From positions 160,001 through 224,000 of IMG/VR virus record IMGVR_UViG_3300014208_000026: a stretch of 64,000 nucleotides of DNA. One strand, written 5' to 3'. A program made the position numbers and the translations under genes. The stretch's first letter is position 1, and each line of letters begins with the position of its first letter. Below the pieces are notes generated by a model that was not told where the DNA came from, did not search any database, and saw only the letters and a program-made list of their open reading frames with translations. This stretch comes from a virus. Lineage: Duplodnaviria; Caudoviricetes. Shown here piece by piece: positions 4,610-38,200 of this stretch.

Positions 4610-7600
4610 ATGGCGGCTAAGAAGGGCGGGACAGGTAAGCGAGAAGACTCTGTCATGATGAACATGGGGGTGAGTTTTGCCTCCGATATCGTGTCCGCTT
4701 CTCCTGAGTTCAAGAAACTGGCCGAGAGTTTCGGTGCGGATCTGTCTGCCGCTCAGTCTTCGGCTATCAAGCGTTCGTCGACCAAGCACGTCAAGGAACT
4801 GCAAACGTTCATCAAGAAGATGGACACGCAGTATGCCCAGGCTCTTGTTATCGAGGACAAGAAAGCCCAGAAGCTTGCTCTGAATGCCGTCGCCAAGGAG
4901 TTCAAGACCCGTTGGAACAACGAGGAGCGTTTCCTAGGGCACCGTGAGCAAGCGGCCAAGGACGCAGAAGAGACCCTCAAGAAGAACTTTGCAGCTAGGA
5001 CAGAGGAGTTTGGTAACGGGCTTCAGGACGCTTTCTCGCAAGCCACCTCTGGGGATATCGGGGGGTTCGCCAATCTGTTCAAGAAGTTTGGTGGCGGGTT
5101 AGAGAAAAAGGGGATGGGTCTTAAAGATTCCACCAGCAAAACAGAAAAGGGTTTGGGAGAAATTCTGGCGAGATTGGGGCCTCTTGCGATTGGTCTTGGT
5201 GCTGTTGTCGCTGGTTTTGCGGCTATTGCGGGGGTGATCATCCAGGCCGACTCCCAAGCCAAGGAATTCAATAAAAGCATTCTGGATGGTGTGTCTATCG
5301 GGGATCTGGGGGTCAAACAGGCTTACCAGACGGCAGAGGCTTTGGAGGAAGTGCGAAAGGCATCTCTGAATCTGACCGAGTTTGGAACCCTGGCCCAAGA
5401 CAATATAGCTATTCTGAATGCTTATGCCAAGGCTGGTCTTACTTTCCGTGAAATTCGCGGAGAGCTTGACAGTTCTAGTGCCGCAATGATGCGTTACACT
5501 TCTGCCATGAAAACTGCTCTTGTGTATTCGAAACTGTTTGGGGAGGACGTGACTAGCGTTGCTACCTCCTCGGCAGAGTACGTCGAGGATTTGGGGTTGA
5601 CCATTGGGGGTGTCGAGGATCGGTTCGCAACATTGTACAAGAAAGCCCTGCAGTCAGGGTTCGGGGTTCAGCGGTTCTACTCCATGGTGCTGCAGGCAAC
5701 TTCCGGCATGGCCATGTACAACGTCCGAATCGAGGAAGCCGCGGGTTTGTTGCTTAAGATCGGTAAGGTTCTGGGTTCTAAAATGGGGGGTGAGTACCTT
5801 CAGTCTTTGACTAAGGGTTTCATGGACGAGTCCATGACAGATCGTATAAAGAGAATCATGATTACGGGTCCGGAGAAGTTCGCGGGGTACTTTGTTCGCG
5901 ATGCTGACGCCATGGCTACGGATTTCTTGGAGAAACTAGGAGACAAGCTTGGTGAGGATAGCGGTCTGGCGAAGAACGTTGAAGCAGCCTTGCAAGCTGC
6001 GGGTATCGATGTTGCAGGGATAAAGCGATCTGGCACTGGAAAAGATTCTCTCCTCAGCGGTTTGAAAGCCATGAAGAAAACCGACAGGGATTTGATGCTG
6101 TCTGCCATCAGGTCTCAAGGGGGGAGCGGGGAAGCACTGGCACGTCAACTCGGAAAACTCATCCAGTTGACGGATGGTACCAAGGGGGGCATGGAGAACA
6201 TGGCCCAGAACATCGGGGCTTTAGGGATGGGTTCTGTTCTGGCCGCCAAGATGGAACACGGTCAAGCCATTATCGGAAAGTCTATCCAGGATATGACTAG
6301 ACTTGACCGTATAGCTTTCGAGAATATTACAGGTATATCCGGAGAGGCGTTCGAGCAGTTGAAGCAGATTGCGGCCTCGTCAGCGGGGGACTGGGTTCAG
6401 CTACAGAAGTTGGCGAAAGCCGGAGAGTCTCAGACGGACCTGTTCGAGAAATTCGGAGTGATCGCGGAGAAACAGGCTGACGGTACTTTCAAGTATTTTA
6501 AGGCCCAAGATGATGGTGCGGGGAACTTAACCAAAAACGGTCTAGAACTGAAAAATTCGATGGATCTTATGTCGGCTAATGAGCAGAAGTATGGCGATGA
6601 GATGAAACAGATAGTGGACGAACAAACCCTGTTGGCTCGTACGGTAGCTGAGAACACTACTGGTATCATGCAATTTCTCCAGCAGCGGGTCCAGCAAGCT
6701 TTGGAGGGCATCTACGATGCGGTCCAAAGCATTTTAGGTTTCCTTGGGCTTGGAGCTGACGAGGATGAGAAAAAGTTACGGGATCAGGCTTCTCAAGATG
6801 TGAAAAACCAGATTGCAGGTTTGAGAAAACAGCAGGATGCAGCCAACGTTACCGAATCAGAATTGATGAAAAAGATATCGGAAAGTTCAGGAGATGAAAA
6901 GAAATTCTATGAGACGCAGCTTAGTGACCTGAAAGAAGGTAACAAGTTCCGCCAGATGAGCCAGGAGCTTCTAGGGCAGCAACTTTTAGCTTTGAATTCT
7001 TTGCAGGAGGGGGGTTTCGATACGGTAGCGGGAGCTAGAGGTAAAGCTTTGGAGTCTCCAGCAGCGCAGGCGGCCATCAAGGCTATTGCTGAACGCTATG
7101 GCCTTTCAGATAAGCTTCTTGAAGAGGCTACTCGAAGGGGTGAGTTGGGGGGTTCCAGTTTTGAAAAAAAGTATCGGATGGAAAAGTGGAGTGACTTCGA
7201 TACAGATACCTATCGGTCATATAATGTCAAAACCCCAGAAGGTCGTGCTGCAGATATGGCGCGAGGTGTAGCTGATACTATGTCCAATTGGACGGGACAG
7301 AACGCCTCTCCTGTCATGACATTGTCCCCGGAAGATCAAGCCAAGGCTCTCGAAGAGCAGACAGGATTCGTGGAGGAAGCGACCTATGATGCCAAGGACA
7401 ATTCTCCTCAGGGTTTGAAAAGAAAAGCTTGGGCAGTCAAGCAACAAAAGGCTCTGCTGGATATCATCAATCCGAAAGAGATGGCAAAGGCTTGGGGGGA
7501 GAACGAAGATAGACGGGAAGCGGGCAAAATCGCACTGGCTGCAGGTTTGCAGGGGGACGAGTTCAAAGAGGCCGTAGAAGGTTTGATGGCAGGTAAGCTT

Positions 7601-8582: not shown

Positions 8583-9845
8583 ATGGCCAGTAACCTTGTC
8601 CCCGCTACCTCCCCGCCGCCTGCCCAGATCTATCAAGTGCCGGTTGGTCCGATTTTCAACCACACCTTTGAGATTCAGGACGGAATGCCGGTCGACGGGT
8701 CTCGGAACCTGTCCCGGGCTCTCTCTCCGTTCGTCATTGAGATTCTGCCCCCGTTGGTGATGGGGACGGACCCAGAAGCGGAGGCAAGCGCAAATACGGG
8801 GTACGTGGACGCTTTCAGCAGAGGGCTGGCGTCAGTGCCTTTCGTGAAGGCCAGGGACCGTTTGCAGACCATGTCCTATATCGGGGTGGACAAGCTTTCC
8901 TCCATGGAGGCATTCGTTTCTTCGGGGCAGGTGATCACCGACCAGATGGTGGTTGGAGACACTCAGAAGTCCCTTAAGAATCCTTATTTGGCGGATGCCA
9001 GAGCGGCTTGCGATATCAGCATACAATTATCGAAGATCCTCAAGACTCCGCCTTTGACACTGCTAATCAATCCGGAGTCCTTATCTCTGCAGTTCACCAA
9101 GATTCAGCAATACTCGGACCGTTCTAGGCATGGGTTGATCTTTCAAAGTTTCGGAGCTGAGCAACCCAAGCTGTCGGTAACCGGTCGCATCGGAGCTTTC
9201 ATAGCGGGTTCTCCTCCTGGCACTTCTGCCTTGGCTTCTGGAAAAACTACGACGCCTACGGGGGTCCAGTTCGCCAGCAAGAGGAACTCGGCTTCGTGGC
9301 AGAACTTGATGGCTCTGTTTAGTTTCTATGCTAACAATGGCTACATCTATGATACCTTGAATAAATCGAATGCTAATTACTTTGTTGGTGCTTTAGCTAT
9401 ACATTATGACAGTTTTAGTTATATTGGGAACTGCAATTCGTTCGGTTTTGGCTACGATGAAACTAACGTTCAGGGAGCGGTGTCCTTTGACTTGGATTTC
9501 ACAGTGTCCATGTTGATTGACAACGCTCAATCAACGGGCGTAGTGCGACCTATGAGAGCCCTCTCGGATTCTCCGGTCACGCCTGGAATGTTTGGCGGGA
9601 TGGCCCCTGCTGGAGCAGATCCGACTAATGACCTTGGTCGGTTGGAGCGGTTCGATAATGCACACGCGATTAGGGCGGCTGCGTCGACCGTCCGTCCGGT
9701 AAATCCGAACGTTCTCCCTGTGTTACAGCAGGTTAGGCAGAGTATAATTGATCTCCCGAGTAGTACGGGAGGTTTCGAGCCGACACAGGCAGTGACCGGT
9801 AGAAATGTTGTAAGGCGAGCTACGCCTTTTATTAAGAGCAGGTGA
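8583..9845 (+). CDS. Second tube-initiator-like paralogue
   Basis: 420 aa. The internal LTLLINPESLSLQFTK...GLIFQSFGAEQPKLSVTG aligns by eye with the 7965-8576 product. Confidence 0.5.
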   Translation: MASNLVPATSPPPAQIYQVPVGPIFNHTFEIQDGMPVDGSRNLSRALSPFVIEILPPLVMGTDPEAEASANTGYVDAFSRGLASVPFVKARDRLQTMSYIGVDKLSSMEAFVSSGQVITDQMVVGDTQKSLKNPYLADARAACDISIQLSKILKTPPLTLLINPESLSLQFTKIQQYSDRSRHGLIFQSFGAEQPKLSVTGRIGAFIAGSPPGTSALASGKTTTPTGVQFASKRNSASWQNLMALFSFYANNGYIYDTLNKSNANYFVGALAIHYDSFSYIGNCNSFGFGYDETNVQGAVSFDLDFTVSMLIDNAQSTGVVRPMRALSDSPVTPGMFGGMAPAGADPTNDLGRLERFDNAHAIRAAASTVRPVNPNVLPVLQQVRQSIIDLPSSTGGFEPTQAVTGRNVVRRATPFIKSR

Positions 9846-9850
9846 GGATT

Positions 9851-10813
9851 ATGGCTGAAAAGAAAAAAAGACAGTACACAGAGGAACAGAAAAAGAAATA
9901 CAGTGATTTGCAGAAGAAAAAGTACCTGGAACAAAAAGCCAGTAAACCAGAGGGGGTCTGTGCTCAACCCTATTGTAACAATCCCATTGAGGATGCAAAG
10001 TATAAGGTCTGTTTGTCTTGCAGAGAGCACAACAGGGAAGCTGTAAAAAAATACCGCAAAGTGCCAAAACCAGAAGGGATTTGTAGCGTTTCGGGTTGTA
10101 AAAATCAAGCCCGTCCAGGTTTAGCTCACTGTGAAGATTGTGCCGCCAAACAGGCTGTCTATGGAAAAAAACCCATCAACAGGAAAAAAGGCCAGGAGAG
10201 AAATCGCCGTCTGCGGGATGAAGTGTTTAATGCTTATGGGGGTCGTTGCTGCTGTTGCGGTGAAAGCAATTTTGCGTTTCTGTCTATTGACCACGAGAAT
10301 GGTTTTGATGGCACAGGCCCGAGAAAAGGGGACCATTTATATGGCTGGTTGAAGGCACAGGGTTTCCCTTCTGGTTTTAGAGTTCTGTGTATGAATTGCA
10401 ATTGTTCTCTCGGGCACAGAGGTTATTGTCCGCATGGGAATTTGACACAAGCGGTAAAGCCAAAGACTCTTTCTCCTACGGAGCAAACATTGGCACGTCG
10501 AGAATATCAGAAAGATCGGCATATTGAACTCAGGAAGAAAGTCTTTGAGGTATATGGGGGTGCTGTTTGTACTTGTTGCGGTGAAACCATTTTTGAGTTT
10601 CTTACGATAGACCATTTGGAGGGCACAGGTGCAGAGCATCGAAGGGAAGATAGAGGAGCACGGGATTTATGTGCTTGGATTGTGAGTCGTGGTTTCCCTC
10701 CGGGTTTTCAGGTTCTCTGCATGAATTGCAATGCTGCAAAGGGACGTCACAACAGCGGGGGAAAGTGCCCCCATGAAAAAGCCAGAGAAGTGTTGTTGGA
10801 GAAGGTTGAATGA
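9851..10813 (+). CDS. Free-standing homing-type endonuclease with two tandem HNH domains and N-terminal Cys motifs
   Basis: Two copies of YGG-x-CxCCGE...FLxIDH...GFxVLCMNCN...CPH (about 10235-10435 and 10553-10774), plus N-terminal CxxxxC...CxxC pairs. The ATG at 9851 with GAGG is preferred over the GTG at 9842. AT-rich. Confidence 0.8.
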   Translation: MAEKKKRQYTEEQKKKYSDLQKKKYLEQKASKPEGVCAQPYCNNPIEDAKYKVCLSCREHNREAVKKYRKVPKPEGICSVSGCKNQARPGLAHCEDCAAKQAVYGKKPINRKKGQERNRRLRDEVFNAYGGRCCCCGESNFAFLSIDHENGFDGTGPRKGDHLYGWLKAQGFPSGFRVLCMNCNCSLGHRGYCPHGNLTQAVKPKTLSPTEQTLARREYQKDRHIELRKKVFEVYGGAVCTCCGETIFEFLTIDHLEGTGAEHRREDRGARDLCAWIVSRGFPPGFQVLCMNCNAAKGRHNSGGKCPHEKAREVLLEKVE

Positions 10814-28560: not shown

Positions 28561-31317
28561 ATGCCCGCACCGCCTCCTGTTATCACTACTGTGGCTGACG
28601 CTAACAAGGCTTCGGATGATGGTAAATGGCTTACCCTTAGTGTCGGGTTGCCCGATTACCTGAAGGACGCCAAGGACAAGTTTCATAGTGGGGCTTCCAC
28701 TCTCATTACGTTGATGGATATTGCCCTGGCGGCTCTCCGGCTGGCCAAGGCACTGTCTCTGTCCTACCTCGATCCCTTGATCGCTATTCTGGAAGCGATT
28801 GTCAACGAGCTTCAAGGGTACATCAACGATCTCACGAAGGGTGGGATTTTCATTTCGGGGGACTGGAAGTATTTCGTGGCTCCCTTCGAGGACCTGCGGG
28901 GCGGGTTCTCTGCTTATGAGCGTCGGATGGTGTCCCGTTTCGCCGATCCGACGGACCCGACACGCCCGAATCTGTCCCCCTCGTCGGCGGCTATGGCGGT
29001 GTTTGTGTACTCCGAAGAGGACCTGACGGCGGTCATGAATATCGTGCGGCTGGTCAAGCTGCTCATGAAGTTCTTTGGGCAGGATTTCCTTCCGAAGGGC
29101 CTACCGGCCGTTTCGAACTTGAAGGTTGCTTACGGGCTTGCGGATATGAACGCTTTCGACTATTTCCGAAGCTTGGGGGATTACTTCGACTCGTCGAACG
29201 CGGGCAAGGTTCCAAACGTCGCCCGAGTAACCTGGAACGCGAATATCACCCCGAACAGCATGGGCTTGACTCTCCCCAATATCACTGTCGGCGGGTACTT
29301 GATTCAGGTTTCGACGGTGAAGGATGGGTTGCCTATCTACTACGAGAGGAACGTGGACAACGTTCCCAAGACGATTCTGCCCTCGGGTGGGACAGCGACT
29401 CAGAAAGTCGTGGGCAGGGTTCTTGACCCCTCGGGACAGCCTCTCACTCTTTATGGCGGTGCAGATCAGATTTTCGTCGAAGGAGCTTTGGGTTTCAACT
29501 CGAACATCGACGCGAATGGTGTTTTGAGGCCCGGGGCCGCTCGTGTGTTCGCCAAGAAATCTCAGGCGGATGACGTTGCTATCCCTCTGGATTTGTTGAA
29601 GGACGGGGACGATTACCTGTACCAGAAGACCTTTTTCCTGGATGCTACGACAGCGGCCTTCTATCCAGGGGACGGGTTTGGTTTCCCGTTGGCTTATGAC
29701 CAAATGCCCTTTGATGCTACGGCAAAGCAGGAGTCTGACGGGACTGTGATTTTGGTGAAGGGGGAGCGACCCCTCAATTACTACGTGCGGGTCACTCCGA
29801 CCAGTACCGGTGTTACAAGTGCTGCGGGGGAAAAGGGTGTGACAGGGGAGGGTTCTTTCTATTTCTGGCTCAGCTCAGATACGATAAGTGCCCCGCAACC
29901 GTTTAGAGCGACCGCCGCGGGGGTGAACTCTAAGGGTGAGCGTTTGGAAATGGGGGCGGACTATGGCCAGACTTCCGACGCCCTCCCGATTCTGTTCCCG
30001 AGCATCAACACCAAGACCTACATGGATCGCGTAGCTATTGCCCTCGCAGTGCTGGTTCTGAGCCGCTCGGATCTTTCCGTGTACGAAGGAACGGATCCCG
30101 CCAGTGAGTTCAATACCAAAGGTATGGCCAGGACCCCCACGGGGTTGGAGCCTTTCGGGTCTTTGGTCAACTGGATTTACTCTGGCCCCAACAACGTTTT
30201 CGAAAGCCCCGATACTTCTCCAGATAGTTTCCGCAGTGACCTGTGGAGTCGGTGTCGACAACTGGCCTATGACCTGTACCAGAAAACGGGCCCTATGCCC
30301 GCTATCGAAGAGTTTGTCGTGGCCCAGACAGGGTTGCTGGACACCTGGACTTGGGGGCAGGATTCTGGAAACTTTCTCCTGGCAGGGACGAAAGCGACTA
30401 TCGTAGAGTCTTTGAATGCTAACGCAAAAGCCGGAGAATACGAGGGGCTTGCTCTCAACCCTTGGTGCCTTGCTCCGCTAAGCGTGGTGCAGGGCACTTA
30501 TCTTGCCCCTACGGGAAGTCCTATCAATTCCAGGGAGCCAGGATTCTTTGCTTTCCTGCCTGAACGGGTTTTTACCAAGGACGGCTATACCCAGGAGGAA
30601 TTGCATTCGACGCTGGCTCCGTACCCCCCGCTACAGGCTCAGTTCCGGATGTCTATTGAAATGGGGTCTTGGCCGATAAATCAGGTGGACAGGCTCTACT
30701 ATTTGCCTCCGCAGTTCGTTTCTGGAGACTCGGGCAAGCTAGAAGGTTCGGAAGACCATTCGCCTATCTATTACACGAACTGGGGCGCTTTGAAGACCGG
30801 AACGGGAGGGCAGATTTTCTTCTGCCGGAACCTGTTCTCCGCCGAGGTGTATAAGCAGGCGGCCGTGGCTTTGAACATAGCGGCTTCTTCTTTCGGGCGG
30901 CGTAAGGATAAGGGCGAGTGGATTGCCATTCGGCCTTTCCAAGCCATGCCCGACCTGTTCGGAATGCTGGACACCATCGTCATGTGGGCTCAGGGACTGA
31001 CCGCAGGGTTGAAATCTATTGCGGATGCTCTCGATTCCTACATTGAGTTCATCGAGGCCCGTATCCTGGAAATCCAGCAGTTGATTCGGCGCATTGACGC
31101 CCTCGTGCAGTCCATCGAGATGATTCAGGTTCCGAGTTTCAGTGGGTTGATAGTGCATGGTAACGGGACGGACGGGCTCCTCTCGGGGTTCCTTTCGGCT
31201 CAGGACAAGCCCTCTAGTAGCGGTGCCGATGTGTACGGGGCGGGGGTCGTAATTGTCATGGGCGGGATTCCGGCTGCGAGTGTTCCTCTCCTGGAACTGT
31301 TGTTGGCGAAGGTGTAG
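28561..31317 (+). CDS. Hypothetical virion protein with amphipathic helical N- and C-termini
   Basis: 918 aa. Helical ends (LIAILEAIVNELQGYINDL; YIEFIEARILEIQQLIRRIDAL) flank a beta-rich core. Confidence 0.6.
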   Translation: MPAPPPVITTVADANKASDDGKWLTLSVGLPDYLKDAKDKFHSGASTLITLMDIALAALRLAKALSLSYLDPLIAILEAIVNELQGYINDLTKGGIFISGDWKYFVAPFEDLRGGFSAYERRMVSRFADPTDPTRPNLSPSSAAMAVFVYSEEDLTAVMNIVRLVKLLMKFFGQDFLPKGLPAVSNLKVAYGLADMNAFDYFRSLGDYFDSSNAGKVPNVARVTWNANITPNSMGLTLPNITVGGYLIQVSTVKDGLPIYYERNVDNVPKTILPSGGTATQKVVGRVLDPSGQPLTLYGGADQIFVEGALGFNSNIDANGVLRPGAARVFAKKSQADDVAIPLDLLKDGDDYLYQKTFFLDATTAAFYPGDGFGFPLAYDQMPFDATAKQESDGTVILVKGERPLNYYVRVTPTSTGVTSAAGEKGVTGEGSFYFWLSSDTISAPQPFRATAAGVNSKGERLEMGADYGQTSDALPILFPSINTKTYMDRVAIALAVLVLSRSDLSVYEGTDPASEFNTKGMARTPTGLEPFGSLVNWIYSGPNNVFESPDTSPDSFRSDLWSRCRQLAYDLYQKTGPMPAIEEFVVAQTGLLDTWTWGQDSGNFLLAGTKATIVESLNANAKAGEYEGLALNPWCLAPLSVVQGTYLAPTGSPINSREPGFFAFLPERVFTKDGYTQEELHSTLAPYPPLQAQFRMSIEMGSWPINQVDRLYYLPPQFVSGDSGKLEGSEDHSPIYYTNWGALKTGTGGQIFFCRNLFSAEVYKQAAVALNIAASSFGRRKDKGEWIAIRPFQAMPDLFGMLDTIVMWAQGLTAGLKSIADALDSYIEFIEARILEIQQLIRRIDALVQSIEMIQVPSFSGLIVHGNGTDGLLSGFLSAQDKPSSSGADVYGAGVVIVMGGIPAASVPLLELLLAKV

Positions 31318-31319
31318 AG

Positions 31320-32195
31320 ATGGGAACTTTTGGGGCAATCAGTACGTTCCGAGTTGGATACTGGAAAGGCATTCGCGGGTTTCTTCTTGGAGAACGCAGG
31401 GACGTGATCCGTCGAATTGCTGTGATCGATGCGGAACTGGCTCGAATCGGCAAGGTGCATGTTCAGTACAAAAAGACCGAGGTAGACGGGGAGGTTCGGG
31501 CCACTGAGGAACGCACCGCAATGTTTGTCGACGCAGGCACCTCTCTGGAAAGACTCATGCAGGCGTACATTGCTCAGGGCGGGAATCCCTTCGATATCTC
31601 CCACTTCTTTATGCCTGACGAGACCATGGCAGTCGGGCAAGATTCCGCAGGGAATACCATTCTGGCCGATGCTTTCCCTTATGGGGGTGTGGCTGCTCCG
31701 CAAAATGCAGAGTACAACGAGCCGCTAACCTACGACGGGTACAAGGGCGGGTATCTGCCTATGCACAAGTATCCTCCGAATCGGACAGGGGACAGGACGG
31801 ATCGAAGCTCAGCGGCGGAGCCGGTGACGGCTTTGATGATTGAAGCTCGACGTTGGGTTGGGCAGGAGATTTCGGAGAAGCTCCACAACCTCGAAGCCCG
31901 CATCATCAAGTTGTGTGACCTTCGGGAGCAACTGGAAAAGGAAAAGGAACTCCTGAAGGCTATGCACGGAGGCACGCTGTCTAGTCTGCCCGAGACCTAT
32001 CACCAGCCTGGGGGAATGTACGCCAACGCCTTGAGACTACAGAATATCGTAGGGCAGATGGATGCGATCTTTTTCGTGACCAACGACGAGGGGGCTGTCA
32101 CACAATGGTCTCCTGCAGGAGGGCAGTTGAGCCCCTATCACGGAATCTTCTGGGAAGATCACCCTGCGGAGAAGACTCTGACGATGATGGCCTAG
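31320..32195 (+). CDS. Hypothetical virion protein, coiled-coil C-terminus
   Basis: 291 aa, starting 2 nt after the previous stop, backbone codon style. Confidence 0.55.
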   Translation: MGTFGAISTFRVGYWKGIRGFLLGERRDVIRRIAVIDAELARIGKVHVQYKKTEVDGEVRATEERTAMFVDAGTSLERLMQAYIAQGGNPFDISHFFMPDETMAVGQDSAGNTILADAFPYGGVAAPQNAEYNEPLTYDGYKGGYLPMHKYPPNRTGDRTDRSSAAEPVTALMIEARRWVGQEISEKLHNLEARIIKLCDLREQLEKEKELLKAMHGGTLSSLPETYHQPGGMYANALRLQNIVGQMDAIFFVTNDEGAVTQWSPAGGQLSPYHGIFWEDHPAEKTLTMMA

Positions 32196-32470
32196 TCCGA
32201 TTCTGGTGGGGCCCAATCACCCATCTCACCCTCAATCTCGGCAACCAGTTCGACCAGACCCCTGGGAGTCGGAACTCCGTCTCCGGTTTGGTAGAACGTG
32301 CAGATCAGGGCTTGAGTCGTCTTGTGTAGGAGCCCTTTCAGAGTGTGGATTTCGGCCTCCTTGGCCACTAGGGCAGTGGCCATGCACTCACTTCCCCCAG
32401 GGGATACGCACGTGTAGAGGTCTGTGCCAAAGGGGCGCCCGCAAATGTTGCAACGGTCCTGGTCGGTCAT
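32192..32470 (-). CDS. Small hypothetical protein with an N-terminal CxxC
   Basis: 92 aa (MTDQDRCNICG...). Has an AGAGG RBS and its own upstream promoter-like motif at 32504-32532. Overlaps the end of the + strand gene convergently. Confidence 0.55.
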   Translation of the reverse strand: MTDQDRCNICGRPFGTDLYTCVSPGGSECMATALVAKEAEIHTLKGLLHKTTQALICTFYQTGDGVPTPRGLVELVAEIEGEMGDWAPPESD

Positions 32471-32503
32471 GTTCTGAGGTTCCTCTTTGTGAAGGCCCGC
32501 TCT

Positions 32504-32532
32504 TACTATACTCTATCGCCGCGATCCCTCGA
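32504..32532 (-). promoter_or_regulatory. Putative promoter TCGA-N12-ATAGAGTATAGTA (copy 1)
   Basis: 13-bp core and TCGA spacing identical to the copy at 33995-34023. Contains a TATAGT -10-like hexamer about 35 nt upstream of the ATG at 32470. Confidence 0.55.
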
Positions 32533-32541
32533 CTGGTTTGA

Positions 32542-33966
32542 TCAGCGTCGGGTCGGAGCACCCCAGTGGACTCTTTGCGGGTACTGTTGTACAGTTTTTT
32601 TGTTGCGCATTGGGTCTCTGCTAGTCGTAGGTTCTAAGCCGTTCTCCGAAACTGACCCGATCGAGGCCCCCTGGGGGTTTCCCTCAGAATCGGTGTTCGG
32701 TTCCTGCTTCACTGAGACTAGTTTCACTCCCTCCCCCGTAGGTACATAAGAGCCAGAGCTTGTCTCTCCACAGGCTTTATCCCGTTTCCTCTTCCTCTTT
32801 GCCTTAGGCACGGGAGGAAGGAGAACGGAGCACACGGGGGAACTCCCCGCAATTTTCACTAATTCCGCTAACTGAACTAAGTTAATAGCTGCGTTGTGAT
32901 CCCTGTCAGCTTCAAAACCACAAGCCTCGCAAATGAACGTCCTGTCCTTTAGGGACTGGTCTTTCTTTACCTCTCCACAGGCCGAACACCTCTTACTACT
33001 CGGAAAGAATCGGTTCGCCTTTACGACAGTTCCGCCCGCCATCCACATCTTGTATGTGATCATCCGATGCAGACTGCTAGGAGAGGCGTCGAAGAGAGCC
33101 TTTGCCAAGCAATGGTTTTTTGTCATTCCAGCAACGTTCAGCGTCTCTAACACAACCGTACTCGAACGCTTGGCTATCGCGTCCGAGACCTTATGTAGAG
33201 CGTCGTTGCGCTGACAGGCGACTTTGTAGTGCTGCTTGGCTAGCTTGTCCTTGGCCTTCTTGGAGTTCTCGGATCCTTTCTTCTTACGAGAGAGGGACTT
33301 TTGTAAAAGGCGAAGCCTCCTTTCGGATCGTTTTAGTGCTTTAGGGTTTTCGAAGACCGTTCCGTCGGATAAAACCGCGAGGGATTTGATCCCCACGTCG
33401 ACTCCCAGGGTTTCTACCCCGAGAGGGCGGGTGTGAGGTTCATCCGTCTTGATCGAGACAAACCACCTACCTGCTCTTTCCGAGACCGTCGCAGAGATAA
33501 TTCTTGCGTCGGTAGGGAAGTAGCCATGCTCTTTCAACCGGAGCCAGCCGAGTCTGGGAAGCTTGATCTTTTTCTCAGTTACGTGAATCTGACCGGTGAG
33601 CGTGAAAGATCCGATCCCGTCTTTCTTTTTCTTGAATTTAGGGTAGCCTTTTTTCTTACATTTAGGATCCCTACATCGGCGGAAATATTGGTCGAACCCA
33701 TTGTCTAAGTTCCGAAGTGCTTCCTGTACAACGCACTTCGAGACTTCATACATCCAAGAGAACCCTCCCTCCTCTTTAGGGAGCTTCTTGAGGACGTTAA
33801 GTTCCTTATGAAGATCAATGGCTGTATGGTACTTTTCACCATTCTTATAAGTCTCGTTCTTACGTCCTAGCCCCCAGTTATAGGCAACCCGAGCCGCACC
33901 TGCGTGCTGCTTGCATCCGGTGATCTGGACTTTGTTCAAATCCAGCTCTGTGAAGTAGGCTCTCAT
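32542..33966 (-). CDS. tnpB: IS607-type TnpB RNA-guided endonuclease, orphan (no tnpA in view)
   Basis: 474 aa with N-terminal HAGAARVAYNWGL and GYPKFKKK. RuvC-I LGVDVGI, RuvC-II VVLETLNV, zinc finger SSKRCSACG...FICEACG, RuvC-III DRDHNAAINL. Long C-terminal tail (ACGE...VKLVSVKQEPNT) of the kind that overlaps the omegaRNA. Confidence 0.92.
   Translation of the reverse strand: MRAYFTELDLNKVQITGCKQHAGAARVAYNWGLGRKNETYKNGEKYHTAIDLHKELNVLKKLPKEEGGFSWMYEVSKCVVQEALRNLDNGFDQYFRRCRDPKCKKKGYPKFKKKKDGIGSFTLTGQIHVTEKKIKLPRLGWLRLKEHGYFPTDARIISATVSERAGRWFVSIKTDEPHTRPLGVETLGVDVGIKSLAVLSDGTVFENPKALKRSERRLRLLQKSLSRKKKGSENSKKAKDKLAKQHYKVACQRNDALHKVSDAIAKRSSTVVLETLNVAGMTKNHCLAKALFDASPSSLHRMITYKMWMAGGTVVKANRFFPSSKRCSACGEVKKDQSLKDRTFICEACGFEADRDHNAAINLVQLAELVKIAGSSPVCSVLLPPVPKAKRKRKRDKACGETSSGSYVPTGEGVKLVSVKQEPNTDSEGNPQGASIGSVSENGLEPTTSRDPMRNKKTVQQYPQRVHWGAPTRR
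32618..32860 (-). ncRNA. Predicted TnpB omegaRNA: scaffold ending ...GTCAGTTTCGGAGAACGG at 32639, then a guide beginning CTTAGAACCTACGACTAGCAG
   Basis: Overlaps the tnpB 3' tail. The scaffold end resembles IS607 right ends and terminates in GG, the IS607 core dinucleotide. Both boundaries are approximate. Confidence 0.5.
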
Positions 33967-33994
33967 TTGGTTTAGACTCTAGCCTCCTGGATCC

Positions 33995-34023
33995 TACTAT
34001 ACTCTATTTGGGCACTTGATCGA
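33995..34023 (-). promoter_or_regulatory. Putative promoter TCGA-N12-ATAGAGTATAGTA (copy 2), upstream of tnpB
   Basis: Exact match of core and spacing to 32504-32532. Lies 29 nt upstream of the tnpB ATG, with GGAGG in between. Confidence 0.55.
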
Positions 34024-34128
34024 AAGTGGGACCAGGGTCGGCTGATCCACCTAGTTCTAGTTTGAGGTTATTCTGGACGGCTGTTACGTGCCCATGCTCA
34101 GGTAGAATGAAACTGAAATCGACCGGCA

Positions 34129-34163
34129 CGGTTTTTCTGCCTATGGTCTCAGCTTAGATAGGA
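34129..34163 (+). promoter_or_regulatory. Putative late promoter copy (CGGTTTTTCTGC-CTATGG-N12-TAGGA)
   Basis: Same bipartite motif. It would restart + strand transcription after the antisense tnpB block. Confidence 0.6.
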
Positions 34164-34185
34164 ACCTCTGCGTGGAGTCCCTCGT

Positions 34186-35271
34186 TTGAGCCAGGATTTT
34201 CAGATCGCCCATAGCTGTTCCCATGAGACTTTGGAGGAATGGGCACAGCTAGATACCGACCGGCAGACGTTGATAACTCGTCAGCCAGTCGGGTCCGAGT
34301 TGTCTGTCCGTATTCTATTGAATGACGATTGGGTGATTCCTCGTGGGGGGTTGCTATCCCCCGCCCAGATCACGAGCGGGCAGTCGGGGCCCTTCAAGAT
34401 TCTGCCGAACGAAACCACGTTGACGGTTCGGACGGCGGATGAAGTTGTGACCTTGGACCTCCCTACGGGTTCCCGCGTTCCTACCTCTACGGTAGTCAGC
34501 AGGTTCCAGGCTTTGACGTCGAATGTTCTGGCGGAGAATGTGAATGGCTCCTTGGTGTTCACCGACCTGTCCAGGGTAGGACCTGGAGCGGTGATCAAGG
34601 TGGAGGGTACAGCGGCAACCTCTTTGGGGTTCGGAACGGACCAGCAGAGGGGGGCCCGAGGAAAAGAGATCATGCCAGGGTGGAACTTGACGAAGCGGGC
34701 AGGGGCTCTTTTCAGTCGCAGTCCGAAGTTCTTGAAGCCGATCAAGTCCAATCCTGTGTTCAAGGTTTCCTACGTGACCGCCCCTGAGTTTTGTCTCCGG
34801 TGTGGAGGTACTCGGGTCGAGAATGATTTCCAAATCGACTCGCAGGGTTCTTACCTGATCATCGAGAACGAGAACCTCCTGTATCAAGCGTCGATGAAGA
34901 TCATTCTCACCGACAAGGGCTCGAATCCTTTCCATACTTGGTACGGGACTTCCATCAGTTCCCGGATTGGGAGCAAGGCTGTCGGTAACATTGCGGGGGC
35001 TTTGGCAGAAGATGTACGGCAGGCCCTCACGAACTTGCAGAACATTCAGACCCAGAAGTCCAAGTGGCAACCGGTTACATTCAAGGAACGGCTGTACCAG
35101 ATTTTGCAAGTCCAGGTGTACCCCGACCCGCAAGATCAGACAGCCTTTACGATTGACGTGGTGGTACAGAATGCCGCCAGAGAACCGGTTCAGCTATCTA
35201 TCGTTTACACAACTCCGGGGACGGTGTCCAGGATGACTTCTAACGGACGAACTCTAGCTTTAGGGGCCTAA
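34186..35271 (+). CDS. Baseplate wedge subunit with C-terminal gp25/gpW-like domain
   Basis: 361 aa, TTG start. C-terminal NLLYQASMKIILTDKGSNPFHTWYGTSI...DVRQAL...FTIDVVVQNA is gp25-like. Confidence 0.7.
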   Translation: MSQDFQIAHSCSHETLEEWAQLDTDRQTLITRQPVGSELSVRILLNDDWVIPRGGLLSPAQITSGQSGPFKILPNETTLTVRTADEVVTLDLPTGSRVPTSTVVSRFQALTSNVLAENVNGSLVFTDLSRVGPGAVIKVEGTAATSLGFGTDQQRGARGKEIMPGWNLTKRAGALFSRSPKFLKPIKSNPVFKVSYVTAPEFCLRCGGTRVENDFQIDSQGSYLIIENENLLYQASMKIILTDKGSNPFHTWYGTSISSRIGSKAVGNIAGALAEDVRQALTNLQNIQTQKSKWQPVTFKERLYQILQVQVYPDPQDQTAFTIDVVVQNAAREPVQLSIVYTTPGTVSRMTSNGRTLALGA

Positions 35272-35274
35272 GCC

Positions 35275-38200
35275 ATGGCAACTCCAAAGTTTCTAGGTCC
35301 CGATGGGATTCTGCGAGAAGAATTCAATTTTTCGACTACGCTTGCGTTCCGGTTCTTCTCCGGCACTACGGATGCAGATACCGTGGATATGCAAGTGTCG
35401 GTCCGCGGGGACCCTTTCGTAAGCGATGCGGATCTGATCTCGTTCGAGGGGACAACGTTTTCTATTCCTAATCCGACGGTCTATCCTGACGGGCTCCCCC
35501 TGGACGCTGGGTTGAATGAGATTCGAGTTCGGGCGGTGCTCACGAACGGTAGTGTGACTCCGGAAGCGGTCATTCGGGCCCGTTTGGTCCAGGAAAGTGA
35601 TCTCGGGATGATCGTGCTCCCGCCCACTGGCATTTCGGCGGAGAGGAAAAGTGGTCTTGTTGTCGTTACGGTAGAGGGGCTCGACGATTCTCATATCCTG
35701 GGTTACAATTTCTACGCTTCGACGCAAGAGGGCGGAGGGATTGCAGGGTACTCCAAGATCAACTCCGCTCTTGTGTCCTCCGGTGTCACGGCAGAGGAGG
35801 AAACCAGTCTCTCCTCATTGGATACTGATATCATTGTCGCTGTAGGCGGGGATTTGCTCCCTCTCGCGGATCCTCAGTATCTGAACATCCTGGGTACTCA
35901 GCAGGATCGGGAAGGTGTGGTACTGACAACTGATTTCAATGAGTCTTTGGAGATTCCAGAGACGGCACGTAAACTGAGGTTTGCGGCCACCATCAACACT
36001 GTCCGTAACGTCACGTCTTACTCGTTTACCCATAGTCGCACGGCTACGTTGCAGTCTGTTTATCCCGCGATTCCGAATAGCAGTTTCGGGACGATTGCTG
36101 AGACAGACCCTCTCTACTACGTAGCCTCTGCGGTCTATTACGATGACGTAGCCGGTGTAGAGACTGAGTCCTCCTATTCCCCCGAAGTGACCGGAGCGCC
36201 TATTGTCGTGACTTCGGCTGTGGGGGCTTTCCCGACCGTGAATCGCACGCAGATCGTGCAGGATATGTCCCTTTCGGTGTTCCGCTCAAATCCCGGACTC
36301 TCGATCGAACCTGGGTCCGTTCTTAGAGACACCGTCATGGACCCCGCTTCTGTCGAAATGGCACGAGTTCGTTTCGTCATTGACTTTATGCATCGGGCTC
36401 AGAGTCCCGCTTCGTTGCTGGCTATCGACGACCCGAATCGTACGGGGGCTTCTGTTCCTGTCAGTGCTTCTGCTTACAAGTTGGATCTGAAAAAGGCTTT
36501 CTACCTGACGGCGGATGCTGATGTACAGGCTCTCATTGATGACTCCTTTGATATCCTTGGCAACAGGTATGGTCTGACTCGTGACCCTGGCAATTATGCC
36601 CGAGGCGAGGTCACGTTCTACACCAAGTCCCGTCCGACTCGCTCCAAGACTTTCCCTGTGGGGACTCTGGTTAGTAGCGGTGTCCAATTCAGGACGACGA
36701 CTACGGCCCAGGTTACCCTATCTAACGTCGCTTCGATCTACAGTGCCTCTACGGGCAGGTATTCCGTTCGAGCTTCTATCAAGGCAACCGATCGGGGTGC
36801 CGCTGGAAATCTCACTGAAGGTCAGATCCGGAAGATCGTGACGGCAGGCTACGAAGATTTCTCCGTCACGAATGAGGGTCGAATTTCTGGAGGCACGGAG
36901 CGAGAATCCAATCTCCGTTTTGCAGAGAGAATCGGGACCGCTCTGGCTATGATCAGCGGGGACACAGAGTGGGCTTATCGCCAGACAGCAATCGGCGTTT
37001 CCAGCGTAGAAGAGGTCAAGGTTATTAGTGCCGGAGACGCTAATATGCTGCGGGACTTCGATGGTGCTATCCACCGCGGGGGGAAGGTAGACGTTTGGGT
37101 TCGAGGGAGCCAGACCGCAAGCGTGACGGACGATTTTGCCTTCTCTTACGAGATTGCAAAGGGGATGGCTTTTGCGGTTGTCGGGGATCCTCAGAACCTT
37201 ACTTTCATTGCCCTCGATAGCAATCTCTCGGTGAACAATCCAATCATTGAGGTGTTGGATATCCCTGCGTGGGGGTACGAGTTCGTGAATGCCAATACCG
37301 GCGTGGCCATGAACCTGACAGGGGTTGTGATTCAGGACTATCGGACCATCGTCCTGTCCTCGACGTACAATGACCCTGTGACCTATTATTTGACTGACGT
37401 GTTCCATGGCAGTTACCGGTATCGAACCAGTGACAGGTTCGTGTTCCCCAGACAGCCGGTGGAATCTATCGAGTCTCTGACCGGAACGGTTACGGGTGTC
37501 GTGAACTCCAGTGCCTATGCTCTGTATCGGGCGGCCTCTCCTCTCCAGCTTGGCCGTTCGGAGTGGGCGGGGGATTACCTGAAGGTTACGGATACCCAGG
37601 CAACCGGAATCACCATTCCTTCAGGGACGCCCATCACTGTTGCCAGTGAGGAGCATGTCATTCTTGCGGGGTATACGGAGTACCTGTTTGAGATTGGGGC
37701 GAACGTTCTCACCTTGGAAGTCTGGGACTCCTCCCACACTACGATGTACATCAGCCCTTATGCTGATTCCGTCAATAATGACTACACGGTCATCATGGGT
37801 ACAGACACGTCTCCTGTCGGTGTTCGGTTGACTACGGGGAGCGCCATCGTTTCGGGGTCTTCCGTTCTGTTCGATTACAGCCACGATGAGCGGTTTACGG
37901 TGCGGTATTCTTTGGATAGCATGACCCGAGAGACCCAGACTGCCTTGGATCAGAATCGGAATCTCCATGCTGACGTGTTGGCTAAGAAGGCTGTGCCGAT
38001 TCCCGTAGATTTGGGTATGACGGTGATTTTGCAGCAGAACACGGATTTGACTCCCGACAAAGCGGATACTGCTATTCGTACTGCTCTTTATAACTACGAG
38101 AATCGGTTGCGGGTGGGTCAACGACTCCGGCCTTCGGACGCTATTGGGGTTGTGGAAAAGATTACGGGTGTGTCCCATGTGCTGGTGCCGTTGACAAAAC

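Follow-up and report, generated by a model that had tools for sequence, protein, structure and literature searches.

Why a phage genome should carry an intact tnpB with no transposase beside it, behind a promoter-like motif that a neighbouring small gene also carries, is the question raised by a 64,000-nucleotide stretch of viral DNA, referred to below as the window (positions 160001-224000 of the IMG/VR record IMGVR_UViG_3300014208_000026; the record has 257,181 bp and is rated 49% complete by CheckV). A sequence-only reading had described the gene as an orphan, apparently active TnpB placed under a phage-type promoter. The analysis presented here indicates that the locus is probably a TnpA-less derivative of an IS607 insertion sequence (IS), composed of tnpB and an overlapping guide RNA (approximately 32639-33982, minus strand), and that it is more likely to be a selfish homing-type element than a domesticated gene. 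The coding part of this element is as follows.

32542-33966, minus strand: tnpB, open reading frame (ORF) P0001, 474 amino acids, assigned by Pfam, by alignment to a PDB structure, by 80% identity to the protein P0124 and by a ratio of nonsynonymous to synonymous substitution rates (dN/dS, or omega) of 0.13

P0001 has the N-terminal HTH/WED-REC region expected of a TnpB and matches the Pfam families HTH_OrfB_IS605, OrfB_IS605 and Cas12f1-like_TNB above their cut-offs, and its residues 3-367 align with the TnpB of ISDra2 (PDB 8exa, E 1e-55). This alignment places the RuvC triad D190/E274/D356 (DRD motif) on the catalytic positions of ISDra2 TnpB and shows an intact CxxC..CxxC zinc finger (C327/C330/C346/C349), which confirms the intact D-E-D residues and zinc finger noticed earlier. 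The TnpB-homologous part comprises approximately residues 1-367 (32866-33966), while the later codons overlap the guide RNA and extend past it. The ORF is therefore about 45 to 65 codons longer than those of its relatives, as it reads through the guide-RNA scaffold and approximately 97 nt beyond, the stop codon present in the relatives being missing. In ISDra2, the C-terminal tail is dispensable (PMC10097598).

The coding sequence is under purifying selection. Comparison of P0001 with P0124 over codons 1-365 gave a dN of 0.149, a dS of 1.0-1.1 and an omega of 0.13-0.15, so that the dN/dS calculation proposed in the sequence-only reading returned a value of about 0.13. In the part of the ORF that overlaps the guide RNA, dS falls to 0.53 and omega goes up to 0.42, which is to be expected where the RNA is constrained as well.

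The missing transposase is a property of the whole record and not only of the immediate neighbourhood. Pfam searches for Y1 TnpA (PF01797) and for the serine recombinase (PF00239) gave zero matches in the 257,181 bp (49% complete), and tblastn with the IS607 TnpAs of relatives returned only noise, with no tnpA remnant in the record. The earlier observation that no tnpA or serine recombinase lies next to the gene thus extends to the entire record, and the search suggested at that time for an IS607 left end and a tnpA elsewhere in the genome found neither. The NCBIfam models score P0001 higher as IS200_TnpB (303 bits) than as IS607_TnpB (250 bits), both under cut-off, and the IS607 label is borne out by clade membership and neighbouring genes rather than by these scores. 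Among the 31 TnpB relatives collected from viral contigs, several (L014, L015 and L020) have a TnpA with MerR helix-turn-helix (HTH) and Resolvase domains directly 5' of tnpB. The closest relative found anywhere, P0124 on contig L132, is preceded by a 105-amino-acid ORF that is 53% identical to the N-terminal MerR-HTH of TnpA and lacks the catalytic domain. In the maximum-likelihood tree, P0001 and P0124 pair at 100/100 and are nested in a TnpA-less group with L009, L011, L012 and L013 (99/97), which is itself nested in a clade with the TnpA-bearing L014 and L018 (100/97). Because of the TnpA neighbours of the relatives, the MerR stub and this nesting, P0001 is an IS607-lineage TnpB that has lost its transposase. 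A degradation series is at hand, from full IS607 through a MerR stub with tnpB to tnpB alone behind a resident promoter.

The same series can be read in another way, with the locus as a stranded IS607 remnant: an autonomous element would have inserted beside the small gene, lost tnpA and its left end, and persisted as an undecayed passenger, inactive or moved only by a TnpA that the host or another element provides in trans. The MerR stub of the closest relative would then be an intermediate stage. Moreover, tnpB is often found without tnpA, and pseudogenes make up 30% of IS607 TnpAs (PMC11061315). The loss of the normal stop, with an ORF running 97 nt past the scaffold, points in the same direction. 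Against this stand the omega of about 0.13, the intactness of all catalytic and zinc residues, and the number of such genes: the record holds four TnpA-less TnpB-like genes, the best paralogue of the window TnpB being 40% identical, and a whole TnpA-less subclade is found in phage contigs. We consider the remnant explanation unlikely.

Two features of the relatives are recorded here for their own sake. In the nearest TnpA-less relatives, a tiny ribbon-helix-helix or zinc-ribbon ORF abuts the tnpB start (L009 5849-5995, L013 5867-6004, L011/L012 approximately 5810-6004, L017 5855-5995); these ORFs, in the position of TnpA, could be regulators or partners of solo phage TnpBs. The groundwater phage-like contig L133 carries two TnpB genes, at 6001-7191 (plus strand) and 8960-10141 (minus strand), one of them 66% identical to P0001, and the pair brackets a PARP-domain gene and three small ORFs.

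The second component of the element, the guide RNA, overlaps the 3' part of tnpB.

32639-32850, minus strand: scaffold of the guide RNA (omegaRNA, also called reRNA), beginning with the first conserved hairpin and closing with the conserved 3' terminus ...GGGUCAGUUUCGGAGAACGG, delimited by an alignment of 19 relatives and RNAalifold
32780-32832 (approximate bounds), minus strand: extra scaffold hairpin CUCCUUCCUC.../...GAGGAAGAGG, about 55 nt in a linker, folding as a hairpin of its own
32619-32638, minus strand: predicted guide and native target flank CTTAGAACCTACGACTAGCA, directly 3' of the scaffold, where conservation among the relatives ends

RNAalifold on the 19 sequences predicts 23 pairs, with compensatory changes in 20 of them. 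In minimum free energy, the fold predicted for the full 262-nt RNA does not stand out from those of shuffled sequences (z -0.29), and the structural support for an omegaRNA therefore comes from covariation and not from folding energy. The DNA conserved 3' of the DRDHNAAIN motif has an arrangement characteristic of omegaRNAs and consists of a GC hairpin, GCCUGUGGAGAG, GUGAAGCAGGAA and then GU(C/A)AGUUU...GGAACGG, after which similarity among the relatives ends. In the window, the scaffold and right end finish with ...GGAGAACGG at 32647-32639, a CGG end; similarity to the scaffold of L132 stops at ...GAACG, L132 itself having ...AACGA. An end in CGG, with GG as the core dinucleotide, is expected of an IS607-family element, and a Clostridium IS607 guide RNA ends in ...UCGG (PMC10690162). 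The Rfam family RAGATH-18 (RF03064), which has been shown to be the guide of IS607 TnpBs (PMC11061315), matches 32701-32774 with 29.1 bits (E 0.013), under its gathering score of 44.9. The extra hairpin is missing in L009, L011, L012 and L013 and present in L132; since it is common to the closest relative and is placed in a linker, it is a subclade feature and not damage. This full preservation of the guide-RNA structure counts against a stranded remnant. As a separate observation, the extra hairpin also encodes the K/R-rich peptide PKAKRKRKR, of which the closest relative keeps PKRKKKR.

With the guide length of 20 nt assumed from published TnpBs, no second target of the predicted guide was found in the window or in the 257-kb genome, where the best match is a 12-mer with one mismatch. 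This lack of a guide target is what a stranded remnant would lead one to expect. One candidate was rejected: a 20-22-nt match at L137 2018-2040 / L140 5772-5794 lies in the coding region of an unrelated AT-rich contig and is attributable to chance given the size of the collection.

Expression of the element brings in the promoter-like motif, which occurs twice in this region, once upstream of tnpB and once upstream of the small gene P0002.

33995-34023, minus strand: promoter-like motif A, TCGA-N12-ATAGAGTATAGTA, with TCGA at 34020-34023 and the 13-mer at 33995-34007, 28 nt before the tnpB ATG
32504-32532, minus strand: promoter-like motif B, TCGA-N12-ATAGAGTATAGTA, with TCGA at 32529-32532 and the 13-mer at 32504-32516, 33 nt before the P0002 ATG
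32192-32470, minus strand: P0002, a small ORFan gene of 92 amino acids with an N-terminal CxxC..C..C in its translation, inside the 2-kb insertion described below and outside the TnpB element

The motif is present exactly as the sequence-only reading had claimed. Motifs A and B are identical at 17 of 17 motif positions and at only 3 of the 12 bases of the N12 spacer, and this conservation of the motif with a diverged spacer argues for selection on a bipartite site and against a decaying duplication. The exact 13-mer, which contains a -10-like TATAGT, occurs twice in the window, compared with a mean of 0.36 in shuffled sequences even with up to 2 mismatches allowed. In the 257 kb, the 13-mer box ATAGRGTATAGTW has 5 copies against approximately 0.02 expected from base composition, and all of them face a start codon at a distance of 28-62 nt. 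Behind the box are a 445-amino-acid ORF, a 1,230-amino-acid LAGLIDADG+HTH+methylase ORF, a 100-amino-acid ORF, P0002 and tnpB. The enrichment is confined to the full 13-mer, GTATAGTW alone being seen 12 times with about 10 expected. The LAGLIDADG endonuclease/HTH/DNA methylase ORF lies outside the window (G000 109900-113667; L129 101-3868).

A scan of 31800-34400 with the sigma70 consensus found 0 promoters, the -35 parts being poor. TATAGT is nevertheless usable as a -10 in this genome, because a textbook TTGACA-N17-TATAGTA occurs elsewhere in it; this perfect promoter lies between two divergent TnpB-like genes (G000 93350-93420; L007 900-960). Sigma factor region 2 had zero matches in the record, in which only HTH-like region-4 matches were obtained. 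On sequence grounds, the box is best regarded as belonging to a sigma70-like promoter whose extended -10 is specific to this phage, and tnpB is probably expressed from this resident promoter. Of the proposed "phage-type promoter", the specificity of the box for the phage has held up and the label has not, sigma70-like being the better term in a record with no sigma region-2 gene. A promoter box 28 nt upstream of the gene is a further point against a stranded remnant.

The possibility that the motif is instead the mobile element's own left-end promoter, with no wiring to the phage, draws on one resemblance: TATAGTAG-N5-AGGAG occurs 5' of the MerR stub of the closest relative and TATAGTAG-N5-AGGAG in the window. 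Beyond generic -10 and Shine-Dalgarno letters, however, the two loci have zero similarity upstream of the ATG. The full 13-mer is common to four phage genes unrelated to TnpB, precedes 0 of the 31 TnpB relatives, and is absent from all of the approximately 125 other loci fetched, among them those relatives and some 80 syntenic loci from phages related to this one. It is likewise lacking at the other three TnpB-like genes of the genome. An IS-borne promoter is thus very improbable.

Between the P0002 promoter and the guide, at 32580-32606 (plus strand), lies a hairpin ACTGT-TGT-ACAGT followed by seven T, below the detection level of the scan tool. It is a weak terminator-like signal, which could stop late-operon transcripts running antisense into tnpB.

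The limits of the element are best seen by comparison with L132. DNA similarity of 77% begins at 33968, only 2 nt 5' of the ATG, and stops where the scaffold does, at 32639; nothing upstream of the ATG or downstream of the scaffold aligns between the window and L132. What the window has in common with L132 thus excludes the promoter motif, the small gene and everything else in the insertion. Between the promoter box and the ATG lies a candidate for the left end.

33983-33988, minus strand: AGGAGG, read directly from the sequence, a candidate for the transposon-adjacent motif (TAM) and the GG left junction, 16 nt before the tnpB ATG

Published TAMs of IS607 elements include AGGAG/GAGGG (PMC11061315) and TGGG with a GG crossover dinucleotide (PMC10690162). 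Since AGGAGG is too distant for a typical ribosome-binding site and resembles these motifs, its GG may mark the left junction of the IS607-derived segment, which would place the element 12 nt downstream of the resident promoter box.

The site in which the element resides was characterized through the two conserved phage genes on either side of it.

31320-32195, plus strand: conserved phage gene of 291 amino acids, the left flank of the insertion, whose homologue lies immediately 5' of gpW-like genes in 56 of the 75 loci compared
34186-35271, plus strand: baseplate gpW-like gene of 361 amino acids, which borders the insertion on the right

Single-protein searches of viral contigs with either flanking gene gave no matches, and related loci were gathered by an alignment-based search with the gpW homologues, which yielded 80 loci, 75 of them with both flanking genes. 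In 56 of the 75, the gap between the 291-amino-acid gene and gpW is 7-71 nt (a clean example is L042, with 43 nt). In the window it is 1,993 nt, an insertion of approximately 2 kb in which tnpB and P0002 are both antisense to the flanking genes. Insertions of more than 550 nt occur in 12 of the 75, six with GIY-YIG+NUMOD3 homing endonuclease genes (L053, L059, L080, L087, L102 and L103) and others including unrelated ORFs. At the same site in L040 lie another, unrelated gene of the TnpB family, which has 26% identity to P0001, and a ribbon-helix-helix gene on the minus strand. The comparison of occupied and empty alleles that had been suggested therefore shows a site that is empty in most relatives and otherwise holds GIY-YIG genes or another TnpB, that is, a recurrent landing place for selfish nuclease genes; as most relatives have nothing inserted there, this phage family can do without the tnpB insertion. 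The other TnpB and the GIY-YIG endonucleases found there in relatives also count against a stranded remnant.

The occupants of the site have some peculiarities of their own. The TnpB-family gene of L040 (4594-5849, minus strand) encodes 366 amino acids, has a Pfam match to TNB only and is 31% identical to the gene at 92031-93323 of the record that contains the window (G000); the ribbon-helix-helix gene 5' of it encodes 52 amino acids and overlaps its start. The GIY-YIG+NUMOD3 genes begin with MSxDxQLAWP, the first ten residues of the downstream gpW-like gene (L053 5246-6004, L059 5285-6004, L080 1111-1902, L102 5199-6002 and L103 2101-2904, all on the plus strand), and from these sequences it looks as if the GIY-YIG insertion had produced a second copy of the gpW 5' end with its start signals.

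The surroundings identify the carrier. Long plus-strand structural genes in the window include a Baseplate_J protein (Pfam). The gpW-like protein has 297 homologues (about 300, on contigs of up to 528 kb) that are approximately 50% identical in alignments across the full 361 amino acids, some of them annotated as baseplate assembly protein W, and it has a weak Pfam match to Sheath_initiator. The long structural genes and the size of the contigs with gpW-like homologues point to a huge phage, with a complete genome estimated at about 500 kb; a contig of 280 kb also encodes P0001. The phage is represented in two listed DNA sequencing runs from groundwater metagenomes, one of them its probable source, and in no listed RNA run, and blastn of 30000-37000 against a phage GenBank collection gave zero matches. 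P0002 has no Pfam or NCBIfam match and no homologues in two very large protein searches; a few long repetitive matches in one protein search look spurious and were set aside. The ORF opposite P0002 on the other strand appears to be non-coding.

Copy number and distribution separate the element from an ordinary recent IS insertion, as had been proposed: it is not multi-copy, has no TnpA and has no recognisable left end. No second copy exists in the 257-kb record. The sequence-only reading would have been refuted by several identical elements whose left end includes the motif; the record instead holds a single copy with a best paralogue at 40%. A second groundwater study has contigs in which both element junctions recur without a single difference; among the contigs that cover the region, no joint skipping the element and no empty allele was found, uncovered parts being uninformative.

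The sequence-only reading had left two outcomes side by side for a tnpB wired into the phage programme, domestication or homing. A domesticated TnpB, under a phage promoter class, would be directed by its RNA against competing phages or host DNA, as a weapon or exclusion factor, or would act as a TldR-like regulator. It would account for a box common to other phage genes, including the LAGLIDADG-HTH-methylase ORF, for the retention of the gene under purifying selection without a transposase, and for an identical allele in two studies. The nuclease, however, has its RuvC triad intact, whereas TldR-type regulators have inactivated RuvC sites. The guide is the DNA beside the right end, as in any IS, with no other match in the 257 kb or in viral contigs, and the one 20-nt match found outside these, on an AT-rich contig with no relation to the phage, is at chance level. 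The insertion is absent from most relatives and thus dispensable. Given the intact active site, the lack of a second guide target and this absence, we regard domestication as improbable. The homing-type outcome is the one that fits a site that is empty, or filled by GIY-YIG or TnpB genes, in relatives.

In the favoured reading, a TnpA-less homing-type IS607 derivative, the host sigma70-type RNA polymerase would transcribe tnpB from the resident promoter, and TnpB would release the guide RNA from the 3' portion of the mRNA that encodes it. During mixed infection, the complex would cut the same locus in element-free relatives where a G-rich TAM abuts a guide-matching sequence, and recombinational repair would copy the element across, a TnpA-independent and non-restorative homing like that of a free-standing homing endonuclease gene. 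TnpB-driven homing is established in bacteria (PMC10690162; 10.1101/2023.03.14.532601), and TnpA-independent TnpB homing between co-infecting phages has been proposed (PMC13565253); for the window TnpB, we infer homing from the comparative analysis described above.

Several observations weigh against this homing-type reading. The left boundary of the element is inferred rather than mapped, and the 16 nt between AGGAGG and the ATG, compared with 5-9 nt for the ribosome-binding sites of other genes here, is a poor spacing for translation of tnpB. No TAM can be called from protein contacts, as 2 of 7 ISDra2 contact residues and 0 of 2 of the ISFba1 lysines checked are kept. The 17-mer of the guide has 0 matches in viral contigs, where no TnpB-free allele with a guide-matching sequence was found, and its 8 matches in metagenome contigs are at chance level with no extended similarity. 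The guide-matching flank lies in non-conserved inserted DNA and not in a conserved phage gene; the nearest relatives are only about 54% identical in the flanking protein. Homing targets may thus be rare or gone, and the unit may be stranded. Finally, the dS between P0001 and P0124 is near saturation, and the purifying selection, measured as a mean for two lineages, may predate the loss of TnpA.

A more specific form of the homing interpretation is offered tentatively, as a possibility that falls short of an even chance. The window TnpB would belong to a phage-adapted lineage without transposase that amounts to an RNA-guided free-standing homing endonuclease, rivals GIY-YIG genes for the hotspot and has its promoter class in common with the LAGLIDADG gene. 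If the cut also excludes the markers of competing phages, carrying the element benefits the phage.

Among known systems, the closest are the IS607 TnpBs with a RAGATH-18-derived guide (ISFba1, PDB 8IAZ; CboIStron), which resemble the window TnpB in domain set, RuvC triad and zinc finger. In the window, as in these systems, the scaffold extends into the 3' end of the gene and finishes with ...CGG, and the window TnpB falls in a clade with elements that bear a serine-recombinase TnpA (PMC11061315, PMC10690162). Unlike them, the window element has no tnpA or recognisable left end, is single-copy, carries an extra scaffold hairpin, has a sub-threshold RAGATH-18 score, and is placed in a phage behind a phage-specific promoter box. 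Relative to ISFba1, K80 and K83 are replaced by C and Q in the window TnpB (PMC10097598). Among natural TnpBs of solved structure, ISDra2 TnpB, of the IS200/IS605 family (PDB 8EXA/8H1J), scores best against P0001; the alignment is full-length, the catalytic residues agree, and in both the guide comes from the right-end flank. In contrast to the window clade, which is associated with a serine TnpA, ISDra2 is mobilised by a Y1 TnpA and has the TAM TTGAT, and five of its seven TAM-contact residues differ in the window TnpB, only K76 and Q80 being kept (PMC10097598). The nuclease-dead TldR repressors are, like the window TnpB, relatives of TnpB kept without a transposase (PMC10705468); the window RuvC is intact, in contrast, and its guide matches no second site in the genome, be it a promoter or another sequence.

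The T4 seg/mob GIY-YIG and HNH genes offer the nearest parallel in lifestyle. Like the window tnpB, they are small nuclease genes with their own promoter, lodged between conserved genes in some related genomes and missing from others (PMC13565253). In the window, target recognition would be through an RNA guide and a TAM and not through the protein, and tnpB is antisense whereas the GIY-YIG genes of the relatives are on the sense strand. TnpB-driven homing has been shown with laboratory plasmids and chromosomes, and transposase-free homing in phages has been argued mainly on theory (PMC13565253); this locus is a natural test case for the latter between co-infecting phages. Compact, self-contained units of TnpB and guide RNA such as this might also be developed into small genome-editing tools after measurement of the TAM. 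The kind of element is already known, and what the locus usefully adds is a comparative picture of TnpB and GIY-YIG in one hotspot: a single site that is empty, filled by GIY-YIG genes or filled by two unrelated TnpBs is the pattern expected if TnpB and classical homing endonucleases occupy the same niche.

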